Shown here one piece after another: positions 289 through 907 of a DNA stretch of 1,983 nucleotides. The notes below the pieces were generated by a model, which was given only the letters and a program-made list of their open reading frames with translations, made no database searches and was not told the DNA's origin. The position numbers and the translations under genes were made by a program. The stretch comes from Escherichia coli (lineage in GTDB: Bacteria; Pseudomonadota; Gammaproteobacteria; Enterobacterales; Enterobacteriaceae), in assembly GCF_044324875.1 (NCBI RefSeq), contig NZ_CP172192.1; one strand, given 5' to 3'. Positions within the stretch are counted from its first letter, which is position 1, and the number at the start of each line of letters is the position of its first letter.

Positions 289-372
289 TCGGGACAGGAT
301 GTGGGAATGTCGGACCGCGCACGCTCGCTCAGACATTCCCCACCTGGTCAGGGCTTCGCCCCGACACCCCGC
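289..372 (+). repeat. 84-bp arm of a perfect inverted repeat (internal copy)
   Basis: Compared by eye base by base: reverse complement of 322..372 equals 1933..1983 and reverse complement of 289..321 equals 1..33, with no mismatches. Identity stops at 373 versus 1932 and at 288 versus 34. Confidence 0.95.
301..343. other. Nested stem-loop inside the repeat arm
   Basis: GTGGGAATGTC (301..311) pairs with GACATTCCCCAC (332..343), one extra C as a bulge, around a 20-nt GC-rich loop. The same structure exists in the other arm across the window junction (1964..1973 with 11..19). Confidence 0.6.
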
Positions 373-513
373 CAACGCCTCACGGCACGCGAAAAAATTC
401 CGCGTACCGCTCACCGTTCTTGAACTCGTCAAACAGAAAATCGCGGGGCCCCGCGCCTCCGGCGTGGGTTCCGATTTTGTGATTGACGACGGCACGGGGA
501 AAACGCTGGGTAT

Positions 514-568
514 GGTGGTTGGTGTCACGGAGTGAGGCCAACCACCTGCAAGACGGTTTTTTGTTGTT
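514..568 (+). other. Stem-loop followed by a T-rich tract
   Basis: GGTGGTTGG (514..522) pairs perfectly with CCAACCACC (538..546) around a 15-nt loop. TTTTTTGTTGTT (557..568) follows after a 10-nt gap. Confidence 0.3.
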
Positions 569-601
569 CACAAAATTGGGGTGAAAGTCTGTGGATGAGA
601 T

Positions 602-634
602 GGGTGTAAGTGGGTGGGGTTGGGAGGTTTTGGG
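602..634 (+). other. G-run cluster fitting a G-quadruplex motif
   Basis: GGG 612..614, GGGG 616..619, GGG 622..624, GGG 632..634 with loops of 1, 2 and 7 nt, plus extra G-runs at 578..581 and 602..604, within a GT-rich stretch 577..640. Confidence 0.3.
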
Positions 635-675
635 TTACTGAAAATCCAGCTCAAAATTCAAGCAAATCTCGCGCG

Positions 676-711
676 CGATCCTTGTATTTATACTTAAGGG
701 ATAACTCTAGG
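676..711 (+). promoter_or_regulatory. AT-rich island with a second nick-site-like motif; alternative dso or rep promoter region
   Basis: CTTGTATTTATACTTAAGGGATAACTCTAGG (681..711) is the only AT-rich stretch in an otherwise GC-rich window. CTTGTAT resembles CTTGATA, and TAAGGGATAACT resembles the TAAGGGTAACT that I recall downstream of the pC194 nick; that recollection is unverified. Confidence 0.2.
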
Positions 712-843
712 ATTCAAATTGGCCTCCAGCCCTTGTCCCGCAAGGCTTGAGGGCACATTTGCTCCGAAATGGGTTTAGAAGTATTCTGTCGGAAGTGGTC
801 GCGTTAAAAGCGACCCCCGCAACGAGGGCAATCGTTCGGGGGC

Positions 844-907
844 GTGACCACCTGTAGAAATTCGAATTAGTGACACGACAACACAGGTGATATGGCAATG
901 ATAACAC
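844..907 (+). promoter_or_regulatory. Candidate double-strand origin (dso) and nick region of the rolling-circle replicon
   Basis: 7-bp stem CACCTGT (849..855) with ACAGGTG (883..889) enclosing a loop that holds the perfect 10-bp palindrome AATTCGAATT (859..868). Immediately 3' are tandem TGATAT (888..893) and TGATAA (899..904), then ATAACAC (901..907). pC194-class origins are nicked at G/A within CTTGATA, and the phiX174 origin, as I recall it, contains TGATATTAATAACAC. Lies 40 to 100 bp upstream of the rep start. Assignment is by motif resemblance only. Confidence 0.35.

Follow-up and report, generated by a model that had tools for sequence, protein, structure and literature searches.

Two regions upstream of the rep gene have been put forward as the place at which leading-strand replication of this small plasmid would begin: an AT-rich island at positions 676-711 and an inverted repeat at 844-907. 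A first-pass annotation of the DNA had proposed the island as an alternative double-strand origin (dso), and had added that it could equally be a DNA unwinding element or the promoter of rep. Here we asked which of the two regions is the likelier nick locus, and at which phosphodiester bond the plasmid's initiator would cut. Throughout, the window is the whole stretch of DNA that was analysed (1,983 nt), and all positions refer to it.

The plasmid, its initiator and the AT-rich island

After rotation, the 1983-bp window was 100% identical to the complete circular plasmid pB of Salmonella Enteritidis (NC_005002.1; record position + 860 = window position), and an E. coli plasmid of equal length (1983 bp) was likewise 100% identical to the window. 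MOB-suite gave the plasmid type of pB as ColpVC. Together with the related plasmid pJ, pB has been published as a rolling-circle-like plasmid (Gregorova et al. 2004, as cited in PMC5841774). The sole convincing gene of pB is rep (944-1933, + strand), which carries the name 'protein rep' in RefSeq and encodes a Rep_1 HUH rolling-circle initiator (Pfam PF01446, E = 7.8e-85; 284.8 bits against a cut-off of 33.2), that is, a cognate initiator encoded in cis with the candidate dso. In an alignment of 8 Reps that were 30-69% identical to that of pB, residues H170, H172, E239, Y243 and K246 were invariant, with both the HUH histidines (H170/H172) and the E239-x-x-K-Y243 motif unchanged. We take E239 and Y243 to be the counterparts of the catalytic Glu and Tyr in RepA of pC194.

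The two motifs that first drew attention to the island, CTTGTAT and TAAGGGATAACT, had been placed correctly, each occurring once in pB, at 681-687 (+) and 695-706 (+), respectively. The island had also been described as the only AT-rich segment. It is the AT-richest part of pB, in that the GC content of 676-711 was 36% relative to 57% for the whole plasmid and the GC minimum at the 30-40 nt scale fell on the 36-nt window 685-720 (25% GC), but it is not the only such part, since 557-592 (33% GC), 628-667 (32.5%) and 855-904 (36% over 50 nt) are AT-rich as well. Because a GC minimum as low as that of pB was reached in 47 of 1000 dinucleotide shuffles, the composition of the island alone was only marginally unusual. 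The canonical nick heptamer CTTGATA was absent from both strands of the whole plasmid, searches of Rfam and NCBIfam returned no matches, and none of the papers that were searched contained the motif string of the island.

To assess conservation, the 450 nt upstream of rep were aligned across 13 plasmids. In 11 enterobacterial plasmids, with Reps 69-96% identical to that of pB, the longest invariant run within these 450 nt was the 26-nt stretch 679-704, and the second-longest was 6 nt. Positions 680-696 were also invariant in a twelfth plasmid (L012), with a Rep that was 44% identical, and the core was present as a single copy per plasmid unit in every relative fetched. A search of PLSDB with the intergenic query 560-940 matched 532 records. 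Among the lower-ranked matches listed, most were 2.07-2.11-kb Col(BS512)-type plasmids of E. coli, Shigella and Klebsiella, which covered only positions 103-145 of the query at 95% identity. This segment corresponds to window 662-704 (+), a 43-nt island common to pB and the Col(BS512)-type 2.1-kb plasmids of Shigella and E. coli, around which the rest of the intergenic DNA has diverged. Complete E. coli genomes showed the same pattern, with a match in 354 of 5426.

The contrast between core and flanks was clearest in the Shigella sonnei plasmid pR15.0423_2.1k (L003), a Col(BS512)-type plasmid with a Rep only 69% identical to that of pB. This plasmid carries ATCCTTGTATTTATACTTAAGGGATAA, the same as pB and at the same distance from rep, and matched the window at 41 of 43 positions in 662-704, whereas only 102 of 239 positions (43%) were identical downstream. 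Across plasmids whose Reps have diverged, conservation was thus higher in the island than in its flanks, and a core shared by the family amid plasmid-specific flanks is the pattern that would be expected of a nick locus.

Match to Rep_1 origins and rival roles of the island

A position weight matrix was built from 19 canonical CTTGATA origins only, with pB-type sites left out. Scanned over both strands of pB, this profile gave a sole positive site, 678-705 (+), which scored 21.2 bits; the second-best site scored -5.2 bits and none of 200 shuffles reached 21.2 bits (maximum 15.0). When the two halves of the profile were used separately, the 5' half scored best at 679-692 and the 3' half at 693-705, in the same register. 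The whole ~28-nt nick-region profile of the family was therefore matched by pB, with ATTTATA (686-692) filling the columns equivalent to the literal CTTGATA. The motif is on the + strand, which also encodes rep, at a distance of 263 nt upstream of the ATG. Its distance to rep in relatives was ~90-590 nt (~120-330 nt in most), the pUB110 origin lies ~180 nt upstream, and pC194, pUB110 and every relative examined likewise had the motif on the rep strand and upstream of rep. The candidate dso of pB hence has every testable feature of the family except the literal CTTGATA. On the strength of the origin profile and the invariance, we consider it very probable that 676-711, with the core ATCCTTGTATTTATACTTAAGGGATAAC at 678-705 (+), is the nick-region core of the pB double-strand origin.

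Relatives at a greater distance link pB to the canonical form. The site of a 1876-bp E. coli plasmid (L024, CP099282; Rep 63% identical) reads CCTTTACTTGATACTTAAGGGATAACT and that of two IMG/VR contigs (L030/L031; Rep 43-45% identical) reads CCTTTTCTTGATAATTAAGGGATAAT, and in both the canonical heptamer stands at the pB spacing from an identical 3' element, TTAAGGGATAA. The 3' half of L024, ATACTTAAGGGATAACT, was identical to that of pB over 17 nt and had the same spacing and the same position relative to rep. The site of the Arsenophonus plasmid paNv_CH16 (L026) is TTCTTTACTTGATAATATAGATGGTAAT, and that of a Moraxella bovis plasmid (L027), CCTTGTATTTATAATTAAGATGGTAAT, combines a pB-type 5' half with an Arsenophonus-type 3' half. 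A scan of viral contigs with the Rep alignment yielded 36 loci; the same scan with a single Rep protein returned no matches.

The nick of the staphylococcal plasmids pC194 and pUB110 is CTTG^ATA (the caret marks the cleaved bond). Like pB, both plasmids have a PF01446 Rep and an origin on the rep strand, upstream of rep. Their recorded origins, ttcttatCTTGATAataagggtaactattgcc in pC194 (NC_002013) and ttcttatCTTGATAcatatagaaataacg in pUB110, share with pB a pyrimidine-rich 5' half and ATA at +1 to +3, and the 3' half is (A)TAAGGG(A)TAAC in pC194 and ATAGAAATAAC in pUB110. They differ from pB, which has ATTTATA for CTTGATA, a Rep only 26-30% identical to theirs and pairwise DNA similarity not above chance. 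The first-pass annotation had noted a resemblance between the island and the pC194 nick region. The sequence it had in view was accurate, and the pC194 origin, aligned locally to the window, did fit best on the island (681-706, +), but 144 of 300 shuffles scored as high. Smith-Waterman placements of the pC194 and L016 origins both fell on the island; pairwise scores for pC194, pUB110 and L016 against the window were equal to the shuffle mean, and we rejected such pairwise alignments as evidence. Judged from the aligned origins, the resemblance to pC194 is significant only at the level of the family, through the profile and the conservation.

A comparable arrangement is found in phiX174, whose gene-A origin is CAACTTG^ATATTAATAAC. 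Like pB, phiX174 has an HUH initiator, a nick of the CTTG^ATA type and, on the 3' side of it, AT-rich sequence; unlike pB, it is a phage and its initiator belongs to a different family.

Closer to pB is pKYM, an S. sonnei rolling-circle plasmid of ~2.1 kb (PMC4439123), the origin of which is described there as a 173-bp region upstream of repK, made up of a core and an HU-binding enhancer (Yasukawa et al. 1991, 1997, in PMC4439123). Both pKYM and pB are Gram-negative Rep_1-type rolling-circle plasmids with the origin upstream of rep, and the core-plus-enhancer layout fits pB, in which a conserved core is followed by a more variable 3' segment. The 41 of 43 matches to L003 are a comparison with the 2.1-kb lineage and not with the pKYM record itself, and no pKYM or RepK name came up when the cluster of the L003 Rep protein was consulted. 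A pKYM-type Rep_1 dso is an element of a known kind, and the plasmid that carries it here has already been published.

The same evidence bears on the proposal that rep, or a divergent transcript, has its promoter at or overlapping the island, whose conservation would then stem from transcription signals. The island is AT-rich and upstream of rep, TATACT (689-694) resembles a -10 element when the sequence is read directly, and the scan did not locate the real rep promoter anywhere else. Set against this, a sigma-70 scan of the entire plasmid detected no site where 0.6 would be expected in shuffles, a result of low power given that the scan missed the true promoter, and by manual reading nothing 16-18 nt upstream of TATACT would pass as a -35 element. 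Conservation took the form of one contiguous 26-nt block rather than two hexamers, the motif aligned to origins of Gram-positive plasmids with different promoters, and its distance to rep ranged from ~90 to ~590 nt among relatives. A promoter role for the island, one of those offered at first, is in our judgement very unlikely.

It has also to be considered that the island is a mere melting element or a binding site for HU or IHF, and that the nick lies elsewhere, for example in the inverted repeat of 844-907. In support of a melting or host-factor element, the island has the lowest GC content of pB, and HU binding is reported for the pKYM origin in PMC4439123. An element driven by composition would not need every base to be invariant over 26 nt, and neither iterons nor DnaA boxes were found: no family of direct repeats was detected near 676-711, and the DnaA-box-like matches in pB (3, against 2.3 expected) included none within the island. 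The earlier suggestion of a DNA unwinding element holds insofar as the AT-rich, structure-poor surroundings of the nick should melt easily; as a theta-type element it does not hold, there being no iterons and no DnaA boxes in excess of chance. Easy melting, which would serve an HUH nuclease on supercoiled DNA, is in keeping with the low stability and AT-richness.

As to the nick lying in 844-907 (+), just upstream of rep, this region does carry a conserved inverted repeat, CACCTGT (850-856) and ACAGGTG (884-890). The repeat was conserved in ColpVC-type plasmids, but Col(BS512) plasmids have a different one at that place (GTCACC...GGTGAC). Moreover, 844-907 scored -10 bits on the origin profile and its longest invariant run was 6 nt (883-888), relative to 21.2 bits and 26 nt for the island. 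In the competition between the two regions that the first-pass annotation had set up, the island was clearly ahead. These observations suggest that 844-907 is a plasmid-specific operator or the rep promoter region and not the nick site, and we regard a melting or host-factor element with the nick elsewhere as extremely improbable.

Predicted position of the nick

With the island taken as the probable nick-region core, we examined where within it the Rep protein would cut. At 676-711 no stable hairpin was found (dG -1.2 kcal/mol, z = -0.01), in contrast to what a loop nick of the pT181/pMV158 kind would call for. A hairpin with the nick in its loop (stem CCTT 680-683 / AAGG 696-699) was considered and rejected, as it showed neither stability nor covariation beyond shuffles: for the proposed 5-bp stem, 70.4% of cells were paired as opposed to 69.5% in shuffles (181/500), and a slide by one position scored higher.

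Alignment gave a more definite answer. In a MAFFT alignment of 23 distinct sites the 5' half was ungapped, and CCTTGTATTT^ATAC of pB lay under TCTTATCTTG^ATAC. Because relatives that share the 3' half of pB and have CTTGATA put ATTT^ATAC where CTTG^ATAC lies, the predicted cleavage site of Rep is T689^A690 (689-690, +), the equivalent of the canonical G^A. We infer, as the likelier outcome by some distance short of certainty, a nick at this bond, within ATTT^ATAC. In this register pB departs from canonical origins at two otherwise invariant columns, with C changed to A at -4 and G changed to T at -1. The upstream CTTG of pB falls with its CTT in the conserved columns -9 to -7 and its G in a variable column.

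The island might instead contain the dso core but be cut after the retained CTTG, at G684^T685 (CTTG^TAT), in which case the nick would be 5 nt further from TTAAGGGATAA than in canonical origins. In canonical origins no tetranucleotide 5' of the nick is as well conserved as CTTG, CCTTG is kept by the pB-type origins of three divergent lineages (the window, L012 and L027), and by manual reading a gapped alignment can be made, ATC(C)TTG-[TATTT]-ATAC against ATCTTG-ATAC in L016. MAFFT nevertheless aligned the sites ungapped in the T689^A690 register, and the 5'-half profile scored 7.6 bits at 679-692, while the placement that aligns CTTG with CTTG, 674-687, was not among the best four sites listed (the lowest at -7.1 bits). 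The CTT stands at C/T-rich columns (-9 to -7) and the G at a variable one, such that the CTTG is maybe a coincidence. The island's core had initially been read as a CTTG^ATA with its TA transposed. That reading was disfavoured by every alignment run, and the CTTG^ATA of pC194 overlies ATTT^ATA (686-692) rather than CTTGTAT. Overall, cleavage at G684^T685 is possible but rather unlikely.

One natural rearrangement also bears on the position of the break. In pLAO14 (L017, NZ_OP242228.1), a 145-kb IncF plasmid, the sequence from 2434-3134 onward corresponds to window ~62-693. This pB/pJ-like fragment ends in ...CCTTGCATTTATAC and is followed by sequence of a 4-kb MOBQ plasmid, in which the parental site reads ...GAGCACATACGCACGG; the crossover thus lies within the shared ATAC, that is, window 690-693. 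Since CCTTGCATTTATAC is intact on one side of the junction, the crossover is 3' of T689, which counts against G684^T685. The junction is suggestive of a break at 689^690 and not at 684^685, as a single event with 4 nt of microhomology, and it could also have arisen independently of Rep. The fragment region of pLAO14 carries IS26 and ISKpn26. A 144-kb plasmid of Shigella flexneri shares this junction, and window 560-693, matched by pLAO14, is matched by a 122-kb E. coli plasmid too.

Among the rearranged relatives examined, only pLAO14 had a junction inside the motif. Four others were discarded as markers of the nick: L066, at 4229 bp, is a dimer and near-perfect, L018 is a cointegrate of the IS26 type in which 8 bp are duplicated, L019 has its deletion in the inverted-repeat region and not at the origin, and L023 is a copy in the chromosome between group-II-intron-like repeats. 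L023 is a Col(BS512)-type origin-plus-rep module in the chromosome of E. coli strain 131 (NZ_CP093011.1, 5191912-5198954), with the same group-II-intron-like (reverse transcriptase) terminal sequence on both sides, and could represent either an unusual insertion or an artefact of assembly.

Flanking elements, replication cycle and meaning for the family

Homology between pB and other ColpVC plasmids ran from 662-678 through rep to ~1960, which therefore delimits an origin-plus-rep module. Adjoining the 5' side of the core, direct reading of the sequence revealed an alternating-CG palindrome, TCGCGCGCGA (668-677, no strand assigned). It was present in most ColpVC and Col(BS512) relatives and absent from L004, L012, L024 and L027, and so is not essential to the core. 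On the other side, 706-790 (+) is a candidate Rep-binding or HU-enhancer part of the origin, as judged from its position and by analogy with pKYM. In the pAKI40C group, 678-784 was present at 88% identity with unrelated DNA upstream. The 3' part contains a hairpin at 727-746, AGCCCTTG-tcccg-CAAGGCT, the arms of which appeared to vary in step in relatives, e.g. AAGCCTTG/CAAGGCTT and CCCTTG/CAAGGG, and the single-stranded fold of 710-765 had z = -1.6. This hairpin is a possible Rep-binding element.

Rolling-circle plasmids usually have a single-strand origin just upstream of the dso. At this place in pB, the module 373-568 (+) was ~75% identical to sequence in related rolling-circle plasmids, and within it 439-551 had ~75% identity to DNA that, in pSLT-like virulence plasmids, is situated ~630 nt past the 3' end of IncFII repA, which is presumably about where the primase-dependent G-site of R1-type replicons lies. 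The module also contains a hairpin at 514-546 (dG -13.8 kcal/mol, z = -3.7) with a T-run after it. From the shared module and the hairpin, 373-568 is likely the lagging-strand (single-strand) origin.

Further upstream, a perfect 84-nt inverted repeat has one arm across the circular junction (1933-1983 and 1-33) and the other at 289-372, separated by a spacer at 34-288. The arm at 286-371 was 95% identical to the DNA immediately upstream of a nikA-like mobA/MOBP relaxase operon of an IncK2/Z conjugative plasmid; thousands of IncI-complex and mobilizable plasmids contained sequence that matched the arm at 79-95% identity. Within the 84-nt arm, ACATCCTGTCCCG (20-33) bears what we take to be a resemblance to the MOBP nick consensus YATCCTG^Y. 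On these similarities pB seems to bear an IncI/K-type oriT in two inverted copies, and this would account for its typing as 'mobilizable' without a relaxase. A 1593-bp E. coli plasmid (L019, NZ_CP100509.1), 99.4% identical to pB, keeps 347-1958 and is without the ~370-nt segment 1959-1983 plus 1-346, that is, most of the inverted repeat and the spacer. This natural deletion, which looks from its extent to have been mediated by the inverted repeat, indicates that the oriT-like region is dispensable for maintenance. RefSeq annotates a 78-aa hypothetical protein at 299-535 (+), which overlaps both the oriT-like arm and the candidate single-strand origin. The 78-aa ORF had no NCBIfam match and a longer ORF in the same frame (104-535) had no Pfam match; it may not be a real gene.

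Taken as a working model, replication of pB would begin when its Rep_1 HUH protein (944-1933) attaches to the origin of the supercoiled plasmid and the AT-rich, structure-poor core melts. Rep would then cut the + strand, most likely at T689^A690, and become linked to the 5' phosphate through the conserved Y243, leaving a free 3'-OH that would prime leading-strand synthesis through rep and around the circle. On completion of the round, Rep would cut the regenerated site and reseal the displaced strand, and the displaced single strand would be converted to duplex from the candidate single-strand origin upstream (373-568).

The four relatives L024, L026, L030 and L031, with Reps 43-63% identical to that of pB, keep CTTG^ATA, whereas pB, the Col(BS512) plasmids, L012 and L027 have CCTTGTATTT^ATA. 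The ATTT^ATA form was interleaved with the canonical form among Reps that were 44-69% identical, which points to repeated switching of specificity or to tolerance at -4 and -1. We put forward tentatively, at somewhat less than even chances, that Rep_1 proteins of the pB/Col(BS512)/Moraxella lineage cleave ATTT^ATA (T^A) instead of CTTG^ATA (G^A). The alternative, a nick moved 5 nt upstream to the retained CTTG, would mean an altered geometry between the nick and the binding site. A non-canonical nick would already be known if that of pKYM was mapped earlier.

The analysis decides between the two candidate regions of pB for the leading-strand origin and provides a prediction of the nick at the level of the nucleotide. 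ColpVC and Col(BS512) plasmids are common, and correct annotation of their origin aids replicon typing and vector design and makes small plasmids that are mosaic or cointegrated easier to interpret. The field gains little beyond this, other than that the pB/Col(BS512) lineage is without the textbook CTTGATA; if that departure is borne out at the nick itself, either outcome, a changed cleavage sequence or a shifted nick, would offer a natural test set for how HUH Rep_1 initiators read their nick sites.
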